A stretch of 64,000 nt of DNA from assembly GCF_963921235.1 (NCBI RefSeq), contig NC_086097.1:44456001-44520000 (forward strand), read 5' to 3'. This DNA comes from Mobula hypostoma. Lineage: Eukaryota. The notes beneath the pieces were generated by a model that did not search any database, was not told where the DNA came from, and saw only the letters and a program-made list of their open reading frames with translations. Below are positions 11,157 through 62,503 of the stretch, one piece after another. The position numbers and the translations under genes were made by a program. Every line of letters starts with the position of its first letter. The stretch's first letter is position 1.

Positions 11157-11315
11157 GATTATTCAAGTGGAAAGCTTCTTACAGGAGAACTAAAGAAAAT
11201 TCTCATTGAAACACTGCAGCCTCTCATAGCAGAACACCAAGCACGACGCAAGCAGGTTACTGACGAAGTGGTAAAACAGTTCATGACCCCTCGGAAACTG
11301 GCATATAATTTTTAA
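11157..11315 (+). CDS. WARS1: WARS1 last coding exon to stop codon
   Basis: Acceptor tatttcctttag|. [55 protein letters not shown] at 11313-11315; typical TrpRS C-terminus. Not in the ORF track. Confidence 0.96.
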
Positions 11316-14176: not shown

Positions 14177-14702
14177 TGTTAAGGATCCGGCCTGAACACT
14201 GGGTCGAAGGGCCTCTCCTGGTAGCTCTGGATCACGACAGTCTTTAATTTCTGTTTTCTTTCACCTGGCCTTGTGGGTCTTGGCCCAGCCCCTTTCCTTT
14301 TTTGGACTTCTTCCAATTACCTGCTTGTCTCCTCATTTGCACCCTCCTGTGTCTAATTTTCACTCATTACCCTGTCCATTTAAACCCTGCCTTGACTAGC
14401 ATTCTCTGTCCAGTTTGTCCCAGATTCTGACCTGTGTCATTCTAGCCTGTCATTGCGACTTCTGCCAACCGATTTTGCTTGGTTCTGTGTTTGGATTTTG
14501 CCTGTTCCTGGACCTGATTTTTGCCTGTGCGCTCTGGATTGTCTGCCCTTGCCTGACTGCCTTTCCTGGTAAGACCTCTGCCTGCCATTTCGGATTCGTG
14601 CCTGCCTTCTGTTTTTGAAAGATGGTTGCCTTTGTGCTCCCTAATAAACCCTGGTGAAAAAGTATTCATCGATCTGCCCTTGAGTCGTGCCAAAACCCGA
14701 CA
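14177..14702 (+). repeat. 5' LTR (526 bp)
   Basis: TGTTAAGG...CCCGACA; TATA-like atttaaa ~14378; aataaa 14643. Confidence 0.93.
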
Positions 14703-17700
14703 GAACGAACTGGCCAAAATGGACTCAGCGGACCCCAACCAGGTACGTGAGGCCCTCTCCCAACAGGGCATGTTGTTAGGGAGACATGAAACGCAGTTCG
14801 CCTCTATCAACCTGTCGATGGAAGCTTTCTCCGCCACTCTGACCAGCATGGCCTCCCAGCTACAGCAGATTCAGCTGGCTCTGAGCTCTAACCCGCCTTC
14901 TCTTGCTGCGCCATCAGCCCCACAGACTCCAACCCAACCAGCCTGAGAGCCCCGTTTACCTCCACCTGAACTTTACAATGGTGAACCAGGCACCTGCTGA
15001 TCCTTCCTGTCTCAATGCTCGCTGATCCTTCCTGTCTCAATGCTCGCTGATTTTTGAGCTGCAGCCCACTACCTTTTCCTCTGATCGATCCCGTATCGGT
15101 TATGTTATCACACTGCAGTCAGGAAGAGCAAGAGAGTGGGGTACAACTGTGTGGGACAGCAGAGCCCCTTTTTGCCACACATTTAAGGACTTTTGTGAGG
15201 AGATGAGAAGAGTCTTTGACCATTCCCAGCAGGGGCGAGAGGCGGCAAAGGGAGATGTTGCGAGTTCGTCAGGGTAACCATTCTGTTTCAGACTACGCCA
15301 TTCAGTTCCGCACTCTAGCCGCCACTACCAACTGTAATTTGGTGGCCCAATCTGACGTGTTTCTCTATGGGCTTAGCGAAGAGGTTAAGGATGAACTAGC
15401 CTCCCATGACATGCCTACTGGCTTCCAAGAGCTGGTCGATTTGGCCATTAAGATTGACAGCCACATAAAACAACGTCAGCAGGAGCGTGATGTCTGGGTG
15501 GTGGGGGGGGGGGTCAGGAAGAACCACCAGGGGGCGTCTGACCCCTCCCCAGCCAGCACCCAGATCTCCTTCCCTGAGTCCTCAGTCACCCCCATCCAGC
15601 CCATCGGAGCTCATGCAGATTGATTGTACCTGTCTGTCTCCTTCAGAAAGGAGGAGGAGAATCAGTACCAACTCCTGTCTGTATTGTGGTCATGCTGGTC
15701 ACTATGTATCTACCTGTCCTGTAAAAAGCCAACGTTCGCTCGTATAGAGGGGACTACAGGTGAGCAGTACTTCCTTCCCCAGTTCCCCATCACTCGAACC
15801 CTGCTACCTGCTTTTATACTGGCTGAAGGGAGGAGACGCACCGTTTCATTTTTATCGACTCTGGGGCTGAGGGAAACTTTATCAGTTCCAGCTTTGCGGC
15901 CAATCTCGGGATGCCACTCTCCTGTCTGAAGCAACCCCTGGAGGCCAGCGGCTTAACCAGAGTGAAACTTGCCATGATTACCCACTCTACAGCTCCGGTG
16001 AGTCTCCTCATTTCTGGCAATCACCAGGAGAGCATTGCTTTCCATGTAATAGATTCCCCCAAAGCTGATGTTGTGTTAGGCCACCCATGGCTAGCTCAGC
16101 ACGGTCCACAGATTGGTTGGTCTAATAACAGAGTGTTAAGCTGGAGTCCTTTCTGCGTAAATCATCGTCTGCGTGTTGCTCATGCTACTCAAAGTCCGGT
16201 TCCTCTGCCTACAGAAGAGTTTCCCGATCTGTCCTCTGTACCCCCTGAATATCTGGACCTAAAGCTGGTATTCAGCAAGACTCAGGCCACCACCTTACCC
16301 CCACGCCGCCCCTATGACTGCGCTATAGATCTCCTTCCGGGAACCTCGCCACCTAGGGGCCGTCTGTATTCCCTGTCTCCACCTGAAAGGAAAGCGATGG
16401 ACCAGTGTATCCAGGAGGCCTTACCAGTGTATCCAGGAGGCCTTGGCTGCAGGAATTATCCGTCCCTCTTCCTCCCCAGCAGGCGCAGGGTTCTTCTTTG
16501 TGGCCAAGAAGGACGGGTGCCTGCATCCTTGCATGGACTATAGAGGTCTCAATGAGATCACCATTAAGAACCGCTATCCTCTTCCTCTTATGTCATCTGC
16601 ATTTGAATTGCTCCAGGGTGCTTCTATCTTCTCCAAGCTCGACCTCCGCAACGCTTACCATCTGGTCCACATAAGAGAGGGGGGATGAGTGGAAGACCGC
16701 ATTCAATACGCCATCTGGGCACTATGAATATTTGGTAATGTCTTTCGGACTTTCTAATGGTGTTGCTGTGTTCCAGTCCCTGGTGAATGACGTCCTCAGA
16801 GACATGTTTAAGCAATTTGTATTTGTTTACTTGGATGATATTCTGATATTTTCTAGGTCCCTCTCTGAACACATCCAGCACGTCCGTCGGGTGCTCCAAC
16901 GACTCCTGGAGAATCAGTTATTCGTGAAGGCGGAAAAGTGTGAATTTCACCGGAGTTCAACTTCGTTTCTGGGATATGTGATCAGCGCTGGAGGAATCCA
17001 GATGGACCCTCAGAACATCAAGGCGGTACAGGAGTGGCCACAACCCGCCTCTCGATGAGATGTCCAACGCTTTCTTGGGTTTGCCAACTTCTATGGCCAA
17101 TTCATTCGAAATTGCAGCATCCTGGCCGCCCCGCTGACTGCGCTAACCTCCTCCAAGTCGAAGTTGGCCTGGAATCCAGCGGCTGAGAAAGCCTTTTCCG
17201 ATCTAAAGACCCGTTTCACCACGGCACCTATCCTCCTTCAGCTCGATCCTACAAGGCAGTTTATTGTAGAGACTGACGCCTCTGATGTAGAAGTAGGGGC
17301 TATACTGTCACAGTGTTCAGCAGAGGACGACAAGCTACACCCGTGCGCCTTTTTTTTCCCACAAATTTTTGCTCACAGAACGCAACTATGACATCGGCAA
17401 TCGAGAGTTATTGGCTGTTAAACTTGCTGTTGAGGAATGGCGGCATTGGCTTGAGGGAACGACTACTCCTTTTCTAGTCTGGACGGATCACAAGAACCTG
17501 GTATATATCCATTCAGCCAAATGCCTCAACTCCCGCCAGGCTCGGTGGTCCCTGTTTTTTGCCCGTTTTAGATTCACCCTGGCCTACCGTCCTGGCTGTA
17601 AGAACAGCAAGCCTGACGCGCTGTCCAGGCAGTTTCCAACAACCGACGAGGCGCCCGAGGTTATGACCATTCTCCCCCAGCAATGTCTGGTCGCCGCAGC

Positions 17701-19113
17701 ATAGTGGGAGATTGAATCTGTGGTCCAGTCTGCCCAGCAGGGTGAGTCTGCTCCTAGTGCCTGCCCTGCTAATCTATTGTATCTTCCCCAGTCTGTCCAC
17801 ACCCAGGTTCTCCAGTGGGGACACACCTCCAAACTGGCATGTCATCCTGGCGTCTGACGCATGACGGCTTTCATCAGTCGAAGATCTTGGTGGCCATCCC
17901 TGAGGAAGGATGTTGAGAGCTTCATTTCTGCCTGCCTAGTCTGTGCACAGAACAAGACCTCCAGCCAGCCACCAACTGGTCTCCTGCAACCCCTGCCTGT
18001 TCCTAGAAGGCCCTGGTCACACATTGCACTGGACTTTGTCACTGGACTCCCTCCATCGGACAGTAACACTACCGTTCTTACCATAGTGGATCGTTTTTCC
18101 AAATTGGTCTATTTAGTTCCCCTTCCCAAGCTGCCCTCTGCCAAGGAGACTGCCAACCTGGTGATTCAGCATGATTTCCATATTCACGGTCTCCCCATTG
18201 AAGTGGTATCTGATAGAGGTTCGCAATTCACCTCCCACTTTTGGAGGACCTTTTGCAAACTACTCGGAATCAGGGTTAACCTCTCATCTGGGTTTCATCC
18301 ACAGAGTAATGGCCAGACCGAGGGGGCTAATCAGCAGATGGAGGTGATGCTCCATTGTGTGACGTCTCAGGAATCTTCCTCTTGGAGTCAGCAACTTCCC
18401 TGGGTCAAGTACGCCATTAATTCTTTGCCTTCTGCTTCATCAGGTTTATCCCCATTCCAGTGCTGTCTTGGCTATCAACCCCCCTTATTCGCGTCTCAGG
18501 AGGAGGAAGTGGGTGTTCCCTCAGCCGAAGCGTTTGTCCAGAGGTGTTCACGGACCTGGAGACGAGCCCGAAAGGCGCTGCTTCAATCTACAGCCAGAAT
18601 GAAGCAGTAAGCAGACCGTCACCGCATTGAGGCCCCCCCGTTACCGCCAGGGTGAGGTGTGGTTATCTTCGCGTGACATCCCCTTGAAGGTGGACTCCCG
18701 CAAGCTGGCACCACGCTACATTGGACCTTTCCCCATCACCAAGGTGATCAGCCCTTCGGTGGTACGTCTAAATCTACCCCCTACCCTTCGCAGAATCCAT
18801 CCTACATTCCATGTTTCAAGGATTAAGCTCTTTGTCTGAGCCCCCTCTGTCCCACCCCCAAGCCCCCTCCCCCTCCCCATCTCATCGATGGCTCAGAGAC
18901 CTTCACTGTGCACCGATTACTGGACGTTCGACGCAGAGGTTGTGGACTGCAATACCTTGTTGCTTGGGAGGGCTATAGCCCCAAAGAGAGGTGTTGGGTT
19001 CCCGCTCGAGATATCCTGGATCCCTCTCTCATGAAGGACTTTCATAGGAGCCATCCCGTACCAGCAAGAAGGGCATCTGGAGATGCCCGTGGGATGGGGG
19101 GAGGGGGGGTTAC

Positions 19114-19639
19114 TGTTAAGGGTCTGGCCTGAACACTGGGTCGAAGGGCCTCTGCTGGTAGCTCTGGATCATGACCGTCTTTAATTTCTGTTTTCTTTCA
19201 CCTGGCCATGTGGGTTCTAGCCCAGCCTCTTTCCTTTTTTGGACTTCCTCCATTTACCTGCTTGTCTCCTCATTTGCACCCACCTGTGTCTAATTTTCAC
19301 TCATTACCCTGTCCATTTAAACCCTGCCTTGACTAGCATTCTCTGTCCAGTTTGTCCCAGATTCTGACCTGTGTCGTTCTAGCCTGTCATTGCGACTTCT
19401 GCCAACCGACTTTGCTTGGTTCTGTGTTTGGATTTTGCCCGTTCCTGGACCTGATTTTTGCCTGTGCGCTCTGGATTGTCTGCCCTCGCCTGACTGCCTT
19501 TCCTGGTAAGACTTCTGCCTGCCATTTCGGATTCGTGCCTGCCTTCTGTTTTTGAAAGACGGTTGCCTTTGTGCTCCCTCATAAACCCTGGTGAAAAAGT
19601 ATTCATCGGTCTGCACTTGAGTCCTGCCAAAACCCGACA
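19114..19639 (+). repeat. 3' LTR (526 bp), followed by a 10-bp terminal duplication
   Basis: Direct repeat of 14177-14702 with about 23 substitutions counted by eye (~4%). Confidence 0.93.
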
Positions 19640-21059
19640 GAACCCGACAGCAACTCAGCTCTTTCCTTGCTCTGGGAGTAGTACCAAACATCCAAGAAAA
19701 TGAGGTACTTACCTAGTGAAGCTATAACACGTGCATGCTTAACTGGAAAAGCAGCATGTAATAAACAGAGCCAAACAATTCCTGACTAGCAGGCCAGATG
19801 AAATCTCTCAGTTCTGTCACATCTGATTATGAGTAATGGTAGGCAATAGAACAACAAACAAGAAAGGTTAACTCCAACAACATCCAATCCTCTGAGGCAA
19901 GGTTAATGTATTTGCAAAGGCATTCACTCAGAAGTGCCGAGTAACTGATCGTTCACAACTTTCTCCTGAGGAACACTGCTTTGCAGAAGCCAGTTTTCAG
20001 GTCTGATTGTACATGATATAAAGAAGCTCCTGAAAATACAATGAAGGCAGCAGGACAAAATGACGTAATTACTATTTTGCTGAAACAAGTTGTGACTCCA
20101 ACCAAAATGTTCCAGTTCAATTATAGCAAGTGCTGATATGGAAAATTGCCCATCTATGACCTATCCACACAAAAAAAGTGAAATGAAATCTGGTCAGTTA
20201 CCATTCCATCAGTCTACTTTTAATCAACAATTAAGTGATGGAAGGCATTGTAATTAGTGCGTAAAGCAGCCCCTCACTCATCAGTAACCTGGTCATTGAT
20301 GCACATCTTGGGTTTTTATCAAATAGTGTTTGTTTGTTTTTTACTATGGTGTTAATCTAAACTTTTACCAAAGTGCTGAAATGCAGAGGTGAAAATAAAG
20401 GCAGTATCTGCCCGAGTATGGCATCCAGGAGCCCTAATACTACTACTTGCATTACATAACTAACAATTTCCTCTTTGGTTACTCTGATCCTTTGTGTGTC
20501 CATGGATTTAAATAATGATGTCTCTTCGTCCGAAATACCTGCAAGGCCTTGTTTGGCTGCAGCCAGCCAGTGAATATTATGGGAGCACAGGAGTTATGCT
20601 ACCAGATTAGTATACAAGATCTCCACATTTGGAATAATCCCTAATTTATTTCTATGCAATTACAAACCTAAAGATGAATGTCAAAAGTCTGTGAATAAAT
20701 TGAAACATGTGCTGGAAAACTAGCTGTCTGTTAACTATTTTCTGATTTCACGGATGATGAATTTCAGTGTTTCCGGTATTTCTTTAAATTCAAAGACGAA
20801 GCTCTTTCACTCAATTCTTTATCATAATTTCTTTGTTAGACTCTATACAATAAATCAAATAGTCATGATATTTAATATAAATGTAATAAACACTGTCATT
20901 TGAGGTATTTCTTTTTCCTGGGATAGGAAAGATTGCAACTTGTTATCACCTGTGGTTTAGGTCAATGCATTGATGTAAGAAGAAGGGAATAGAAGGTCAC
21001 ATTTTTTTTAAATCTAAAGTTTTTAATTTTCCTAAATGTTAATAAAGTTCAAATTAAAA

Positions 21060-28126: not shown

Positions 28127-28437
28127 TCAGTTCAATAGGTACATTTAATGTCAGAGAAATGTATACAATATACATCCTGAAATTCTCTTTCTTTGCAAAC
28201 ATTCACAAAAACACAGGAGTGCCCTAAAAATAATGAATGGCAGTTAAATGTTAGAACCCCAAAGCCCCTCCAGCTCCCCCTTCCCACGCACAAGCAGCAG
28301 CAAAGCAATAACCCCCCCCCCCCACCAAGCACTCAAACGTACAGCAAAGCATCAATAAAGTCACGGGCTTGCAGTACCCCAAAGACTACTCGTTCACCTG
28401 GTAATTCGACATATCACAGGCGCTGTCTCTCTCTCTA

Positions 28438-28506
<69 letters not shown>

Positions 28507-28985
28507 AATAAGGGAAGAAGAGATGTCCCCATTTCACAGTGAGAGGGGAGACATGACAAACAACTCACTGATAAATGATATTAAAAGTTGTGTCGTTTTT
28601 TTCGAGCCCTGCATCCAGAGAATCAGCCCCAGACAGGCTCGGGTCTTTGGGCACACAGCCAGCAGCAAACCCGCTGCTCCTGATGTTCCATGTTCTTCCA
28701 CGACACCGCAGTCAGGGGTACCAGCCTTCAATTAACCCATCTACAGAGCCACAAAAATCCGGCACCCTGGAGGTGTGCTAGTCTTCCAGGCCATGTCCTT
28801 GGCACATCAAAAAGCAGCCCATTCCTACAAAGAACCAAAGTCAGACTGTAACTCCAGGTCAGGTCTTCAAAAGAACCTTAAAAAGGAAAAAAAAAAGAGA
28901 TATCAAAGATAGAAATAGAGCTGTTTCTGAAGATACAAGCAAAGGTGTTGCCATTTAGCACCATCATCACTTTGCTCTGCCCTCC
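28127..28985 (-). mobile_element. Non-autonomous retroelement containing a (CT)n/(CTAT) microsatellite at 28426-28506; related copy in opposite orientation at ~31345-31680
   Basis: ttcaataggtacatttaatgtcagagaaat...catcctgaaattc at 28131 is the reverse complement of ~31622-31675. Confidence 0.65.
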
Positions 28986-29417
28986 AAATAGGTAACGTAT
29001 TAGAGAAGGTTCTTAGGGATAGGATCTACTCAGATCTGTAAAAGCATAGACATATTAGGTATAGTCACCAAAGCTTTGTGAGGGAGAGGATGTGCTTTGC
29101 AAACCTGAGTTTTCTCAGGAAGTGATGAAAATGTTTGATGAGGGTAGGACAGTGGATGTTACATGCATGGACCTTAGTAAAGCTTTCAGCAGGGTCTTCA
29201 TGGTAAGCTGATCCAGAAGATTAAGACATGGAATCCAGGGAGATTTGGTAGAATGGACTCAAAACCAGTAGGTAATTTGTACATGACATTATTTCTCCCC
29301 AAATATTAACTCCCCCCCCCACAACTACCCGTGCATTTAGCCTAATTAATAGGATGGAACGCAACCATGGCAAATAACCAAGGTAATATACAAACCACAG
29401 GAAAATTACCAGCTTAC

Positions 29418-29602
29418 CTCAGCAGTCCCCGCAGGGCAGCCTGCAAATAAAAAAGATCAAGTCTAGATGGCTTCAGGGCAGAGCTGCTGTGCCAAAATTG
29501 ACATTCAAAATTATGACGATTTCTGCATGTGCCAAAATAAACTGAACTGCATATAGCTACTGCTAGGACAGGCAATGCCATTCCTTAATAAAATCTGTCA
29601 AC
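29418..29602 (-). pseudogene. SLC25A47: SLC25A47 pseudogene, exon-4 equivalent (185 nt) with a stop and a +2 frameshift
   Basis: cccaacacag| VDRFY*GMALPVLAVAICSSVYFGTCRNRHNFECQFWHSSSALKPSRLDLF/[shift]AGCPAGTAE |gtaagc vs human VWGFYRGLSLPVCTVSLVSSVSFGTYRHC...KPTKADITLSGCASGLVR. TAA at 29585-29587; length not divisible by 3. Confidence 0.9.
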
Positions 29603-31773
29603 CTGTGTTGGGACAGGAAGAATGATTACTTTTGTTCATTTCATAGCTCCGATATTGCCATATACATATAAACTATGAATTACAAATATACTGACACAAA
29701 TATTTGTCTCATTTCTAATCCCATTCATGATCAACTTAGTTCAGTTTGCATTTGGTTAAATTTTCCAAACTCTGTAATGTACAGTATGTTGTTGAATGAA
29801 TCTCTTCCTTGTTTACTAACTAAATAAACGTTCCAACACATAAAGAGTTCAGTGAAAAATAAAAGAAACACAATGGATCAAATGAATGTTAGTCTTTAAA
29901 GCCAAAGGAGTAGAATAAAAAGGGGAGGATATTTTGCTACAACAATACAAAGACCCATTTAGACCACATATGTGGCATTTTTATACAGAACAACCTTGGA
30001 AGCCATGTTGATCAGATTCACCCAAATGCAACCAAGGCACTAAGGTTTAGATAATAGGATAGATCACCCAAATATTACTTGCACTCTGCAGAATATGCAA
30101 GGATAAAGACATTTGTTTCAAGATTTGATGATTTTTGAAGTGAATTGACCAAGTTTTTCTGCTGATGAGTAGAGTAATACCAGAGCAAGGGGATGCATAG
30201 AACGGGATTGTACTTAGTCCCTACTGTGCCGATGTTCACTCTTGTTCTTCCCTTCCCCAAGCTTCATACTCCTCCCCACTAAATCTTTCCACACCTCCAC
30301 AAATCCAAGCAGTGGCCCCATAAAGAACAGAAAATAGGTCTCAGGCAGCAGATGCCAGACTGCCACATCCTATTGATGGCTTCATCTGTCAAAGGTCTTT
30401 ACCATGATTTCCTGATGTCTTTGATAATCAGTTGAAATAAAATGCAAAATGTTTAAGAAAAAAATAAAAATACTTTTTTGTTCTAGTATAAAGACATTGA
30501 TGTTAAATCAAACAAAGAAACAGCCTTTTTCAATGCATGCCATTACCTTTTAAAATGAATGAGGTGGTGCTACTTACCAAGTTGTGCCTGCCATAAGGCT
30601 GATACAGAGTGTAATCTTCACTCATATCAGCAAGAGAGAGTTCCAGCCCAAGCTCAAAGTTCAACCAAGCAGCAGATTAGGAAGTGAGATAAATCCACAT
30701 CTGATCTTAAGCACATTCCTCCTTCTGCACCCATGCAGCAGAGAAGTCAGAACATGCTGACCTGTGAGGAGGTCCTCACTGATAATTCTTTTCCTAAATG
30801 TTGGCCCAGGCATGAGAAAAATCCAGATGCATTTCTTTTCTGGAAGAGATGTGGAATTGTCTCCCCTCCCCAACAAAAAAAGAAGCTACCTCAAAGAATT
30901 TAACTTCTGAGATCAATGTTTTGCCAGCCAGAAGTACGAAAGGGACACAGAGGAAGTGAAGGGAGTTATGTTTCACTGGATGATGGAACGTGCACAAGCA
31001 ACAGAGTGACACGTTCACACTGCTCTGTTCAAAATGTTCCACTTTAAAGGGAAAAAAAATAAAGAGGCAACTCAATTAAGCAAATCTAAGATCAATCTTC
31101 TTTAATTTGAAATAATTTATTTTTTGCAAAGGTTTAAAAAGCTGGCCATGATTAAATTTTCAGCTTTATTGTAGCTTGCAGTTATTTCAAAAGATGGCAT
31201 TGAAAATGATTTGAATTAACAAGACTCAAATTGAAGTCTATGCAATTTGTGATCAGTTTATTGATAAAGTAGTTTTATAGGGAAATCATTCTGTACCAGA
31301 CATTGTGCAGAACTATAAATGGTGATGATTAACTTCTGGAATTCCCTTGTGAAATGGGGACACCTCTTTTTTCTTTATTAGGGGGAGAGAGAGAGTCTGT
31401 GCTATGTCAAATTCCGGGTGAACGAGTAGTCTTTGGGGTACAGGAAGTCTGTGTCCTTATTGATGCTTTGCTGCACATTTGAGTGCTTGATGGGGAAGGG
31501 GGGTTCATTGCTTTGCTGCTGCGTGGGAGGGGGAGTTGGGGGTGCTTTGGGGTTCTAACATTTAACAGTCATTCATTCTTTGGGGCATTCCTCCGTTTTT
31601 GTGGATGTTTGCGAAGAAAAAGAATTTCAGGATGTATATTGTATAAATTTCTCTGACATTAAATGTACCTATTGAAACTTTCAACACAGTAACGTTCAAT
31701 AGCTCTGTTACTAAGCAATAAATAAAATGTTTTTGAACAGAATTTCTCCACACTTCACATTATATAGATTTAC

Positions 31774-31845
31774 CTTGACTCTCTATAAAGTTGATCAAAT
31801 ACAATGCCAAACTCCACTGTACGTGTGTTGTGTCTGAATTCTCAC
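31774..31845 (-). pseudogene. SLC25A47: SLC25A47 pseudogene, exon-3 equivalent (72 nt) with two in-frame stops
   Basis: atctcaccag| VRIQTQHTYSGVWHCI*STL*RVK |gtaaat vs human VRIQTEPKYTGIWHCVRDTYHRER; TGA at 31795-31797, TAG at 31783-31785. Confidence 0.9.
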
Positions 31846-31928
31846 CTGGTGAGATAACTGCTATTAACTGCAATATCATACATGTAACTATGGGCAACTT
31901 CCAGCAGTAATTCTAATAAATACATTAC

Positions 31929-31972
31929 CTTGATTGTATTCAAAGGATATCGCACAACTTTACCAAGTCCAC
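31929..31972 (-). pseudogene. SLC25A47: SLC25A47 pseudogene, exon-2 equivalent (44 nt)
   Basis: Minus strand: ...gcaaacacag|GTGGACTTGGTAAAGTTGTGCGATATCCTTTGAATACAATCAAG|gtaatg = (G)GLGKVVRYPLNTIK vs human GVCGVAVGYPLDTVK (recalled). The D of the carrier signature Px[DE]xxK is replaced by N. Confidence 0.85.
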
Positions 31973-32781
31973 CTGTGTTTGCAATGTAGATTTTTTAGCA
32001 GTGGATGCCTTTAATTACATTCTTATATTATTATAACATAATAAGTCATGAAATGTGTCAGCAATGATACATACACATTAATTTAATTTCTGTATTTTCC
32101 CTATATGCTGATAATAATGAAGAAACATATTAGCAAGATAATAGTCACAAGCATAATCAGATGGAATGCAAAAGAAAAAGTTTTGATTTCAGCTCTGAAT
32201 TCACACTTTAATATTCAGCAAAGGATCATGGAAAAATGAAGATTGGATGCATAGTAAGCCTTCTTTATTCAGCTCCAAATAACTTAGTTCACATTCTGAA
32301 CTTTTACTTTGGACTTGGTTTTGAATAGAATCTCCGTGCTACTGCAAGATTAGCCGAAGGTCCATCTAACATGCATGATGAAGTTCAAAAAATTGCATCT
32401 AAATGGCAAAAAATTACCAATTAATAATGCATTTTCAGTCCACATGATGCAGAGCAATCAGGTTTGGCCCAAAACATTGACTGCTTATTCATTTACATAG
32501 ATTAATTTACTCCTTGACCTGCTGAGTTCGTCCAGCCTTTGTGTGCGTTGCTCTGGATCTCTGCAGAATTTCTTGTGTCTAATCCAAGAACAACATTGGT
32601 TTAGTTCAATGCATTTTTAGCAGGCAAGTCTGGGACTGGGACAATTATGGCTAGCCCAAGGAGTGACTTAAATGAGGCCAGAGAGCCCAGGAAGGGATAG
32701 AGCTTAGTATGGTTTTTGCCTAGCAGCTTCAGCAACCTAGGTTGAACACCGACTTCCATTACTGTCTATTTGGAGTTTATA

Positions 32782-32909
32782 CACTAAATGGCCACTTTAT
32801 TAGGTACCAGAGTGGAACCTGGTGTCTTCTGCTGCTGTAGCCCATCCACTTCAAGGCACGCTATGTTGTGCAATTAGAGATGCTCTTCTGCACACCGCTG
32901 TTGTAATGC
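32782..32909 (+). mobile_element. Left end of a Tc1/mariner-type MITE inserted at TA in a SINE; its right end lies inside each array unit
   Basis: ta|cactaaatggccactttattaggtac at 32782 is the inverted match of gtacctaataaagtggccactgagtg|ta at 36175-36202. Confidence 0.8.
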
Positions 32910-35900
32910 TGTTGTAAATTACCTAGATCTCACTTTTTTAGATATCTACAGGTTAGAAACTTTTTAATTACTGTTTCTCCTAATTTTCCACACTTATATC
33001 CAATGGATATTTTGGAAAAAATTTTAGATTTAAATCTTTCTCAGAAAGGTGTTGTAGCAATTATTTATAATATAATTATGAATTTATGTCCTGATGTATC
33101 TAATAAAATTAAAACTGATTGGGAAAGAGAATTTTAGATTACTGTACCGATTAAAAAATGGGGAAAAAAATTCTTCAATTAGTTAGTTCATCCTCTATAT
33201 GTGCTAAACATGTGTTGATACAGTTTAAAGTAGTGCACAGGACTCAGATGTCCAAAGATAAATTATCCCGTTATTACTCTTATATAAATCCTACATGTGA
33301 TAGATGTCACTCCGAGATAGCTTCTTTAACTCACATGTCTTGGTCATGTCCTTTGTTGAAAAAATATTGGAAAGATATTTTTGATATTATTTCAACGGTT
33401 TTGAATATAGACTTACAACCTCACCCAATTACTGCTATTTTTGGGTTACCAATGATAGAATCAAATCATTTAACCTCTTCAGCTCGTCGGATGATTGCAT
33501 TTCTTACTTTAATGGCTAGAAGATCCATTTTGCTGAATTGGAAAGAGATTAACCCTCCTACCATATTTCATTGGTTTTCACAAACTATGTTGTGTTTAAA
33601 TTTGGAAAAAATTAGAAGTGTGATTTATGACCCTTCCATTAAATTTGAAAAGACTTGGAGGCCATTCATTCAGCATTTTCATATGATGTAATTTGACCAT
33701 TTCCAAACTTATTTTACTTTTCTGTAATGTTGGTTGAGAGGAACGGAGTTGTCGACACTAAGGTTTTCATTTCTCCCATTTTTTATGATGTTAAAACAGC
33801 CGAAGTCTTTTTTTTTTAGTTTAGTTGATTAATTCTGTTTAGATTAGTGTTTTTTGTGGGGGGGGGGGGTTATTTTTTTTTTACTTTTTAATGATTTTTG
33901 TTTAGATATTTTTCTTTGTTTTATATTATTCATTGCTATCCTATACGATTGGGAGTTTTATCATTTAAGTGTTATTTGGCTTTATAATCACTCATGTTAA
34001 TTATAACAACGTATTCCCAATAACTTTGTACTACTACCATGTCATGTTTATATCTTTATTTAACTAATAAAAAGATTGGAAAAGAAAGGGAAAAAAAGGA
34101 TACGGGGAGAATACATTAGGATTGGTGTAAGTGATGGCAGATGCAGGTTCGGTGGTCAAAGAATAGGTTTAATGCTATCTGACTATGCATCATGGTTGGT
34201 GTGATATATGCAAATTTAAATACATAGTTGTATAAGTGATTTAATACAAAACGTCTTTTGCTTATTGCACTTTGTGTGGTGCAACATACCATTTGTTTTT
34301 AAAAGAGTGGTAAAGGTTTAAACTCTCCCAATAAATCATAACGACTCAGCTCACTGTCAAATCTAGCTGTTAGCTGGAACATTGCCATTTTTCATCAACC
34401 AGAAAGAAATGCTAAGTAGAGGTATCGCCCAGATCTAATATATTTGCAATGTAATTTGGAACGCTGTCCTCTGATTTTCCTACCACCCACCTGGACTAGA
34501 GATCATTCAGACCACAGGCATGCATTTGCAATAGAGCATCCGAAAGCCAGCAACCAGTAAATCTGTGCAGTTTGGGAGCGTAACAGAGCACCAAGGGAAA
34601 CACAAATGGGCAGGGCAAGTATGAGCAAATTCCACGTAGACAGCACACAAGGCGAGCATTGAACTGAATTTGGGTTGCTGCAGCTATATCACCTGCTGCA
34701 TCGCTGTGCTGCACTCGGTGTTTCAATGGCCAGAACTAGACACAGCATTCAAGCTGTAGCAATGAATGACCAAAAGTATGAACGATAGATCAGTAGGCTA
34801 CATTTGATCCCTTTAAATTTATGTTCAACTTTCGAAGCGCAATATTTCAAGTTCAAACTAAATTTATTATCAAAGTATATATAAACGTTTTCAAGAGATA
34901 TTGAGGCCCTGGTTAAGAAAAAAAAAGGAGGAGCACAGCAGGTCTAGGCAGGTAGGAACAAATGAGGTGTTTATGGAGTATAAGAAATGCAAGAGTACGC
35001 TTAGGAAAGAAATCAGGAGGGCTAAAAGAAGGCATGAAGTTGCCCTAGCAGACAAGGTGAAGGAGGGATTCTACAGATATTTTAAGAGCAAAAGGATTAC
35101 AAAAGGCAAAATTGGTCCTCTGGAAGATCAGAGTGCGAATCCATGTGTGGAGTCAAAAGAGATGGGGGATATCTGAAATATTTTTCTGTATTTACTCAGG
35201 AGATGGACACAGGGTACTATAGAAGTGAGGCATAATGAAATCAACTTCATGGACCCTGTACAGATCACAGAGGAGGAGCTGGTTGCTGCCTTGAAGCAAA
35301 TCTGGTGGATAAATTCCCAGGGACTGACTGGTGTTCCCTTGGAACCTACAGGAGGCAAGTGCAGAAATTGCTGGGGCCCTAGCAGAGATATTTAAATCAT
35401 CCTTAGCAATAGGAGAAGTACCAGAGGATTGGAGGATAGACAATGTTGTTCCGCTGTTTAAGAAAGGATCTAAAAGTAAACCAGGAAATTATAGGCCGGT
35501 GAGTCTGACATCCATTGTGGGAAAGTTATTGGAAGGTATTCTAAGAACTAGATATACAAGTATTTGGATAGGCATGGACTGATTAAGCATAGTCTGCATG
35601 GCAAGTCATGTCTAACTAATCTTATAGTGTTTTTCAAGGAAATTACCAGGAAAGTAGATGAGGGCAGGCAGTGGATGTTGCCTACATGGACTTTAGCAAG
35701 GCATTTGACATTCTGCTGCTGTAGCCCATCCACTTCAAGGCACGCTATGTTGTGCAATTAGAGATGCTCTTCTGCTCACCGCTGTTGTAATGCGTAGTTA
35801 TTTGAGTTACCGCCACCTACCAGTTAGCTTGAACCAGACTGACCATTCTCCACTGAACTCTCTCATTAACAGGTTATTTTCGCCCACAGAACTGCAACTC

Positions 35901-60200: not shown

Positions 60201-61756
60201 GCTGTTTAAGAAAGGATCTAAAAGTAAACCAGGAAATTATAGGCCGGTGAGTCTGACATCCATTGTGGGAAAGTTATTGGAAGGTATTCTAAGAACTAGA
60301 TATACAAGTATTTGGATAGGCGTGGACTGATTAAGCATAGTCTGCATGGCAAGTCATGTCTAACTAATCTTATAGTGTTTTTCAAGGAAATTACCAGGAA
60401 AGTAGATGAGGGCAGGCAGTGGATGTTGCCTACATGGACTTTAGCAAGGCATTTGACATTCTGCTGCTGTAGCCCATCCACTTCAAGGCACGCTATGTTG
60501 TGCAATTAGAGATGCTCTTCTGCTCACCGCTGTTGTAATGCGTAGTTATTTGAGTTACCGCCACCTACCAGTTAGCTTGAACCAGACTGACCATTCTCCA
60601 CTGAACTCTCTCATTAACAGGTTATTTTCGCCCACAGAACTGCAACTCACTGGATGTTTTTTTGTTTCTCGCACCATTCTCTGCAAACCCTAGAGAATGT
60701 TGTGTGTGAAAATTGCAGGAGATCAGCAGTTTCTGAGATACTCAAACCACCCTGTCTGGCACCAACAACCATTCCACGGTCAGTCACTTAGATCACACTT
60801 CTTCCCCATTCTGATGCTTGGTCTGAACAAACAACTGAACCTCTTGACCATGTCTGCATGTTTTTATGCATTGAGTCACATGATTTGCTGATTAGATATT
60901 TGCATTAATGAGATGTGCTGGTGTACCTAATAAAGTGGCCACTGAGTGTACAGTATATTTTTGCTGCAGCTACTTTGGATGCTTCATTTTTCTCTTACAT
61001 TTAATAGCTGTCTGGTGTAGTAGATTAATTAGCTTCTATAAATTGTCCCTTTGCATATAAGGAGATGAGGATATGGCTCAACCTTCCACTATGGATCAAG
61101 CTTATTTACATTGGAAAATCAAAGGTACAGTACGATTTTGTGATTTACTTTTGATAATTGTTTTATGTCCTTTGACCAACAATCTAATAAATATAAATTA
61201 CCTAGATCTCACTTTTTTAGATATCTACAGGTTAGAAACTTTTTAATTACTGTTTCTCCTAATTTTCCACACTTATATCCAATGGATATTTTGGAAAAAA
61301 TTTTAGATTTAAATCTTTCTCAGAAAGGTGTTGTAGCAATTATTTATAATATAATTATGAATTTATGTCCTGATGTATCTAATAAAATTAAAACTGATTG
61401 GGAAAGAGAATTTTAGATTACTGTACCGATTAAAAAATGGGGAAAAAAATTCTTCAATTAGTTAGTTCATCCTCTATATGTGCTAAACATGTGTTGATAC
61501 AGTTTAAAGTAGTGCACAGGACTCAGATGTCCAAAGATAAATTATCCCGTTATTACTCTTATATAAATCCTACATGTGATAGATGTCACTCCGAGATAGC
61601 TTCTTTAACTCACATGTCTTGGTCATGTCCTTTGTTGAAAAAATATTGGAAAGATATTTTTGATATTATTTCAACGGTTTTGAATATAGACTTACAACCT
61701 CACCCAATTACTGCTATTTTTGGGTTACCAATGATAGAATCAAATCATTTAACCTC

Positions 61757-62503
61757 AGGGCCCCAAACAGTCCTTCTAAGTGAGGCAGCACTTCTCTTGT
61801 GAGTCTGTTGGGGTCAGCTATTGCATCCGGTGCTCCCGGTGCGGCCTCCTCTACATCGGTGAAACCCGACGCAGATTGGGGGACCGCTTCATCGAGCACC
61901 TCCGCTCCGTCCGCCAAAACAGACAGGATCTCCCAATAGCCACCCACTTCAACTCTGCTTCCCACTCCCATTCAGATATATCCATACATGGCCTCCTCTA
62001 CTGCCATGATGAGGCTAAACTCAGGTTGGAGGAGCAACACCTCATATACCGTCTAGGTAGTCTCCAGCCCCTTGGTATGGACATAGAATTCTCCAACTTC
62101 CAGTAATTCCCTCCCCCTCCCTTCCCCTATCCCTATGTCACTCTGCCCCCTCCCCCAGCTGCCTATCACCTCCCTCCTGGTTCCGCCTCTTTCTACTACC
62201 CATTGTGTTTTTCCCTATTCTTTCTTCACCTTTCCTGCTTATCACCTCCCTGCTTCCCCTCCCCCACCCCTTTATGTTTCCCCTTACTGGTTTTTCACCT
62301 GGAACCTACCAGCCTTCTCCTTCCCACCCTCCCCCCACCTTCTTTATAGGGCCTCTGCCCCTTCCCTCTTCAGTCCTGACGAAGGGTTCTGGCCCGAAAC
62401 GTCGACTGATCTTTTCCACTGATGCTGCCCGACCTGCTGAGTTCCTCCACCGTGTTGTGAATGTTGCTTTGACCCCAGCATCTGCAGATTATTTTGTGTT
62501 TAC
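61757..62503 (+). mobile_element. Penelope-like element 3' part with GIY-YIG endonuclease
   Basis: YCIRCSRCGLLYIGETRRRLGDRFIEH...HFN...LEEQHLIYRLGSLQPLGMDIEF (61780-62106), then a pyrimidine-rich UTR and a hammerhead motif. Confidence 0.92.
62371..62408 (+). ncRNA. Minimal type I hammerhead ribozyme motif
   Basis: cagtc-CTGACGA-a-ggg-ttctgg-ccc-GAAA-CGTC-gactg; perfect stem I (cagtc/gactg); predicted cleavage after C62403. Confidence 0.78.

Follow-up and report, generated by a model that had tools for sequence, protein, structure and literature searches.

Probable unitary loss of the mitochondrial carrier gene SLC25A47 between WARS1 and SLC25A29 in the ray Mobula hypostoma

Among the carriers of the SLC25 family, UCP1 (SLC25A7) is a unitary pseudogene in several mammal lineages, where a widely conserved, tissue-specific carrier decays in place with its neighbors intact. 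Here we describe a comparable fate for another carrier, in another tissue and animal group, namely, SLC25A47 in rays. The locus lies in a 64,000-nucleotide stretch of Mobula hypostoma DNA (the window; NCBI RefSeq assembly GCF_963921235.1, contig NC_086097.1), which occupies positions 44,456,001 to 44,520,000 of contig 1 in an assembly of 3.48 Gb in 200 contigs. Three exons on its minus strand are, with high probability, the remains of a single-copy SLC25A47 orthologue, i.e., a unitary pseudogene unable to make the carrier in this myliobatiform genome. SLC25A47 (also called HDMCP and, in the NCBI naming for fish, SLC25A47-B), a carrier of the mitochondrial inner membrane in liver, belongs to the small set of mitochondrial carriers with a tissue-restricted occurrence, and two mouse studies disagree on its role. 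In one, its depletion impaired lactate-derived gluconeogenesis without liver damage (PMC9992842), while the other describes a knockout with only modest effects, no established substrate, and a largely dispensable carrier (PMC11773045). Judging by titles and the beginnings of abstracts, we found no published account of this gene being lost in evolution. The present case is a new instance of a familiar type of event, and its value hinges on how far the loss extends across rays.

Exon remnant 1 (31929-31972) is 44 nucleotides (nt) long and aligns to residues 12-26 of the intact SLC25A47 of batoids; remnant 2 (31774-31845; 72 nt) covers residues 27-50, and remnant 3 (29418-29602; 185 nt) covers residues 51 to about 112. 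On the minus strand, each exon is preceded by AG (acceptors ...CACAG, ...CACCAG, and ...ACACAG) and followed by GT (donors GTAATG, GTAAAT, and GTAAGC), all six splice dinucleotides being intact. The translations are GLGKVVRYPLNTIK, VRIQTQHTYSGVWHCI*STL*RVK, and VDRFY*GMALPV...SRLDLF..., in which the asterisks are in-frame stops: TGA at 31797-31795 and TAG at 31785-31783 in exon 2 and TAA at 29587-29585 in exon 3, the first of them 30 codons into the surviving sequence. Past the residues SRLDLF, likeness to intact proteins resumes in another frame (AGCPAGTAE); exon 3 has 26 nt here versus 24 in its intact relatives, giving a +2 shift at a T-rich run near 29443-29455. Exon 1 bears G>R and D>N changes in the first carrier signature, Px[DE]xx[KR], which tblastn aligns as YPLNTIK in the remnant versus YPLDTIK in intact proteins. 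A first-pass annotation made from the sequence alone had reported three minus-strand exons of exactly these lengths with canonical splice borders, along with the three nonsense codons, the +2 frameshift, and the D>N change; the translations and tblastn alignments recover all of them.

The protein relationships of these exons point consistently to SLC25A47. In a database of longer proteins, exon 3, read from after its stop, matches a single protein, P0001, an intact sequence of 301 amino acids (aa) that carries the Pfam Mito_carr domain and is 78% identical. Of the 10 members of its 90% cluster, 7 are named SLC25A47 or SLC25A47-B and the other 3 lack a name; the named members come from Amblyraja radiata, Leucoraja erinacea, Rhinoraja longicauda, and Pristis pectinata. 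The majority of the best 120 relatives of P0001, spanning sharks to mammals, are likewise named SLC25A47, and the names member 45 or 45-like occur in just 3 of them. Next after the cluster itself come the SLC25A47 proteins of Callorhinchus and of many sharks, the Chiloscyllium representative being 82% identical to P0001, while relatives from bony fish, amphibians, birds, and mammals show 48-58% identity. An SLC25A45-named protein is only 33% identical to exon 3. Conversely, P0001 used as a tblastn query against the window retrieves exon 3 with an E value of 6.9e-17 and exons 1-2 with one of 9.4e-9, and a profile of 106 SLC25A47 proteins run against 4,320 six-frame pieces of the window detects the three exons at E values of 1.3e-8, 1.2e-5, and 0.057. 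Over residues 12 to about 112, the residue identity to batoid SLC25A47 proteins is 73-76%, and the similarity of the three exons is far more than chance would provide.

A maximum-likelihood tree of 35 rows (301 of 462 columns kept, with the window row filling 32% of these; the label of row P0003 was guessed from an incomplete name) places the remnant exons within the batoid SLC25A47 proteins (support, 100/99*), as sister to Pristis (92/77), inside an SLC25A47 clade (99/96*). The SLC25A45-named rows, the SLC25A29 rows, which form a separate clade (100/100), and this genome's own two closest paralogues all fall outside the SLC25A47 clade; no SLC25A48-named row was included.

The position of the exons tells the same story. 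At the left edge of the window, 362-840 on the plus strand, are the 3' coding exons of WARS1, the cytoplasmic tryptophanyl-tRNA synthetase (PF00579, E value of 2.4e-10; human TrpRS chains, E value of about 1e-32), which is convergent with the pseudogene. On the other side, 111 kb past the window end, lies the plus-strand terminal exon of SLC25A29, whose 259-aa open frame shares 89% identity with proteins that bear the name mitochondrial basic amino acids transporter. The order is thus WARS1 (+), SLC25A47 remnant (-), and SLC25A29 (+), and the arrangement with WARS1 is one that we take to hold in human as well, where SLC25A47 presumably lies tail-to-tail with that gene. In Leucoraja, Amblyraja, Rhinoraja, and Cetorhinus, SLC25A29 and SLC25A47 have consecutive RefSeq numbers on one contig, and from this numbering we infer their adjacency in these four. 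In Pristis pectinata and Heterodontus francisci, the two numbers are nonconsecutive, though on the same chromosome-sized contig; a rearranged neighborhood in these two species could account for this, as could numbering that carries no information. The neighboring SLC25A29 shares both the carrier superfamily and the chromosomal neighborhood of the remnant; it differs in its intact frame, identical at 247 of 247 residues to the Mobula hypostoma record, and in its separate clade. Against the same 247 residues, the count of identities is 240 in Hemitrygon, 238 in Hypanus, 236 in Pristis, 232 in Narcine, and 218-225 in skates. Because the best database match, the tree position, and the locus between WARS1 and SLC25A29 agree, we identify the three exons as the SLC25A47 orthologue.

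The damage extends well beyond the point lesions. Residues 113-301, which comprise carrier repeats 2 and 3, have no match in the window: tblastn with P0001 finds the three exons only, the next profile match beyond them has an E value of 1.4, and loose tblastn searches with 11 intact proteins yield for these residues only matches with E values of >1. The only such match on the minus strand and in the right order (11162-11299, residues 245-280) has E values of 3.7-7.4 and 30% identity with two gaps, and we rejected it as noise. At the other end, a pattern search of 31973-34500 gave no candidate for the first coding exon, a weak search inasmuch as that exon would code for only about 11 residues. 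The first-pass annotation had counted four lesions; all four are present, and the real damage is larger, with residues 113-301 absent and no first coding exon found. The locus compares with the intact SLC25A47 of sawfish, skates, sharks, and chimaera as the same gene by match, tree, and neighbors; unlike them, it has three stops, a +2 frameshift, the D>N change, no repeats 2 and 3, and no detectable start exon. Members of the mitochondrial carrier family (PF00153) have three repeats of ~100 residues, each with Px[DE]xx[KR], whereas the remnant preserves most of repeat 1 only, with the D of its signature replaced by N. It is a descendant of the Mito_carr family that is no longer a working member.

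The surviving residues also bear the marks of relaxed constraint. Over 99 aligned residues, the remnant equals Pristis at 75, while Pristis equals Leucoraja at 93 and Scyliorhinus at 85. Ten intact elasmobranch proteins all agree at 71 columns, and the remnant departs from them at 14 of these; 20 vertebrates all agree at 26 columns, of which 5 are altered in the remnant (G>R, D>N, E>V, G>R, and Y>C). In the tree, its end branch measures 0.29 versus 0-0.017 in the intact batoids, about 17 times longer than any of these. Full-length SLC25A47 proteins of 301-378 aa are present in Pristis, Leucoraja, Amblyraja, Rhinoraja, and many sharks, and from their intactness and short branches we assume that these are functional.

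A six-frame search of the whole assembly with P0001, in which 56 of 56 candidates were scored, returned 19 matches. The window exons match at 68-74% identity, with stops, and outside the window no match exceeds 50% identity. The best intact match to SLC25A47 in the genome is SLC25A29 (37%); a paralogue on contig 21 matches at 38-50% over three exons, and the remaining matches lie at 23-48%. At the DNA level, exon 3 is single copy, with one match genome-wide, to itself. Within this assembly and this candidate-based search, there is hence no functional SLC25A47 copy elsewhere, and the sequence for residues 113-301 is missing from the genome as well as from the window. An SLC25A45-named protein of Latimeria likewise found nothing closer than 39-49% in the genome. 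The contig 21 paralogue (about 41,143,000-41,159,100, plus strand; three stop-free exon matches) is the closest to SLC25A47 after SLC25A29. It is 38-54% identical to SLC25A47 and 40-51% identical to SLC25A45-named proteins, and the tree gives it a long branch that belongs to neither clade; it could represent SLC25A48 or a diverged form of SLC25A45, and it may be what compensates for the lost gene.

The stretch is represented, at least in part, in 20 public sequencing runs, four of which (X1, X5, X9, and X14) were compared. The X1 contigs, from the same organism as the assembly (organism A), span 29300-31427 and 31652-32100 without a single difference or gap. Run X5 comes from another sample and another study and represents a sister organism (B) that is ~1.6-1.9% diverged. 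Its contig over 29300-31093 differs by 28 substitutions and 13 gap letters, and that over 31671-32100 by 8 substitutions and 12 gap letters. None of these 25 gap letters falls within an exon, and therefore the +2 frameshift is common to A and B. Of the substitutions, 27 of 28 in the exon 3 contig and 6 of 8 in the exon 1/2 contig could be placed; one of them, at 31807, converts TGG (31809-31807, in ...VWHC...) to TGA, an extra stop in exon 2. Contigs of organism C (X9; about 4% diverged) cover the locus, except for the bin 31744-31837, and those of organism E (X14; 7-9.5% diverged) cover it as well.

Several points weigh against reading the exons as a unitary pseudogene. Exon 3 by itself reached no family in a Pfam search. 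X1 is probably the sample from which the assembly was built and hence provides no independent check of the individual. Each single stop is likely to be common to organism B, but the one and two unplaced substitutions of its contigs could touch a stop, and for organisms C and E the comparison extends to locus coverage and divergence. The absence of an intact copy is subject to possible incompleteness of the assembly and to sequence that may be unassembled. Finally, the intact splice dinucleotides, which by a rough estimate are not unexpected under drift, leave room for a spliced noncoding transcript. Three alternatives have to be weighed in this light. The exons could be a partial duplicate pseudogene, with a working SLC25A47 in genome sequence that is unassembled or collapsed. 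A 200-contig assembly may have gaps, and only candidate matches were scored, so that absence is never absolute; nevertheless, the remnant sits at the ancestral position between WARS1 and SLC25A29, none of the scored candidates outside the window passes 50% identity, exon 3 DNA matches only itself, and no SLC25A47 shows up in the database for Mobula, Hypanus, and Hemitrygon, whereas their SLC25A29 does. We regard such a hidden copy as very unlikely.

It seems still harder to believe that the lesions are assembly or sequencing errors, or the null allele of one individual from a species with a working gene. Errors cannot delete two-thirds of a coding sequence and would not alter 5 of 26 pan-vertebrate invariant residues; the independent X1 contigs agree with the assembly over both exon-bearing stretches, and organism B has the +2 shift too, plus its additional stop. 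That X1 is the only same-organism run compared, and probably the assembly's own sample, is what speaks for this explanation, which we consider next to impossible. A last alternative is that the remnant has been kept, either as a spliced noncoding RNA or as the source of a short N-terminal peptide whose start lies upstream. The first stop comes 30 codons in, the weak pattern search of 31973-34500 found no upstream start exon, the end branch is about 17 times that of any intact batoid, and the fresh stop in organism B indicates drift; with the canonical AG/GT borders on all three exons in its favor, retained function has, in our estimation, only a slim chance of being correct. For the unitary pseudogene reading, the inference of the first-pass annotation that this is the orthologous SLC25A47 locus has held up, with the best match, the tree, and the WARS1/SLC25A29 synteny in agreement, and none of the three observations that it named as refuting was made: no intact copy turned up elsewhere, and exon 3 is single copy; the X1 contigs match letter for letter, stops included; and the exons group apart from the SLC25A45-named, SLC25A29, and genome paralogue rows.

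How old the loss might be can be approached from the amount of change. The 24 of 99 residues changed since the split from the Pristis lineage would correspond, by a rough calculation, to ~0.12 neutral substitutions per site. Because the total difference between organisms A and E at the locus is no more than 7-9.5%, SLC25A47 probably died well before the compared organisms split. SLC25A29 proteins are in the database for Mobula, Hypanus sabinus, Hemitrygon akajei, and Narcine bancroftii, and no SLC25A47 of Mobula, Hypanus, Hemitrygon, or Narcine is among the best 120 relatives of P0001 or in clusters P0001, P0004, and P0007; for the shark cluster, P0002, 15 of 39 members were covered in this check. 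This absence, which is one from annotation and not from genomes, suggests that the loss covers the stingray order and perhaps the electric rays. We would give roughly even chances to a wider scenario with a single loss of SLC25A47 in stem Myliobatiformes (mantas, eagle rays, and whiprays) upward of about 100 million years ago, a second or earlier loss in electric rays, and retention of the gene in skates, sawfish, sharks, and chimaeras. The first-pass annotation had cast the event as a loss in a cartilaginous fish; this stands for the present ray and does not generalize to cartilaginous fish or batoids, given that skates and sawfish keep the gene.

Taking these findings together, we propose that SLC25A47 died long ago, before the four organisms with this locus split and probably in the stem of the stingray order, and that the locus would since have been shaped by neutral drift, deletion, and retroelement insertion. 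What survives would code for no more than the larger part of one carrier repeat, the first of three; the DNA for repeats 2 and 3 is gone, its interval is filled by retroelements, and an apparently young tandem array of 29 kb abuts the 5' side. The animals would then live without this carrier, which is plausible because knockout mice are viable with modest phenotypes (PMC9992842 and PMC11773045).

A vertebrate lineage that has long lived without SLC25A47 would be an independent data point, as it would mean that at least one type of liver physiology can do without the carrier. The case also offers species pairs for comparison, i.e., sawfish and skates with the gene versus stingrays without it, with respect to metabolite transport, compensation by paralogues, and gluconeogenic flux. 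If the stem-stingray loss is true, rays would be ancient natural knockouts of a liver carrier, providing a comparative route both to the function of the carrier and to how liver metabolism in elasmobranchs manages in its absence. For annotation, the gap between WARS1 and SLC25A29 in such genomes would represent a true loss and not a missed gene.

The sequence around the remnants is dominated by repeats. The 28 kb between exon 3 and WARS1, the expected place of the missing 3' exons, is packed with retroelement pieces. Among these is a decayed Ty3/gypsy-type long terminal repeat (LTR) retrotransposon (14400-19712, plus strand), with protease, reverse transcriptase (RT), integrase, and chromodomain frames broken by frameshifts, and with repeated ends that contain near-identical 72-aa frames at 14400-14618 and 19337-19555. 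On the 5' side, 943 bp upstream of the first surviving exon, begins a 28.8-kb tandem array (32915-61756, plus strand) consisting, by blastn self-comparison, of about 8.15 copies of a 3.54-kb unit that are 99.7-99.8% alike, and breaking off within a unit at 61756; it begins where one would look for the promoter and first coding exon. The unit is made of retroelement fragments, including a 178-aa frame with a weak zf-RVT match and RT-like frames, and the array looks young. Tandem Repeats Finder, with its period limit of 500, reported nothing in 28000-64000. The intron between exon remnants 2 and 3 holds a very high-copy interspersed repeat (31274-31743; strand unassigned), with a summed contig depth of 10^3 to 10^6; the depth is high in all four organisms compared, which points to a repeat that is extremely abundant in this ray group. 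A similar-looking sequence occurs at about 28181-28735. At the far edge of the tandem array, a 108-aa frame (61780-62106, plus strand) has a subthreshold GIY-YIG match (E value of 0.00097; 19.8 bits versus a cutoff of 22.6), and this frame may be a fragment of a Penelope-like element.

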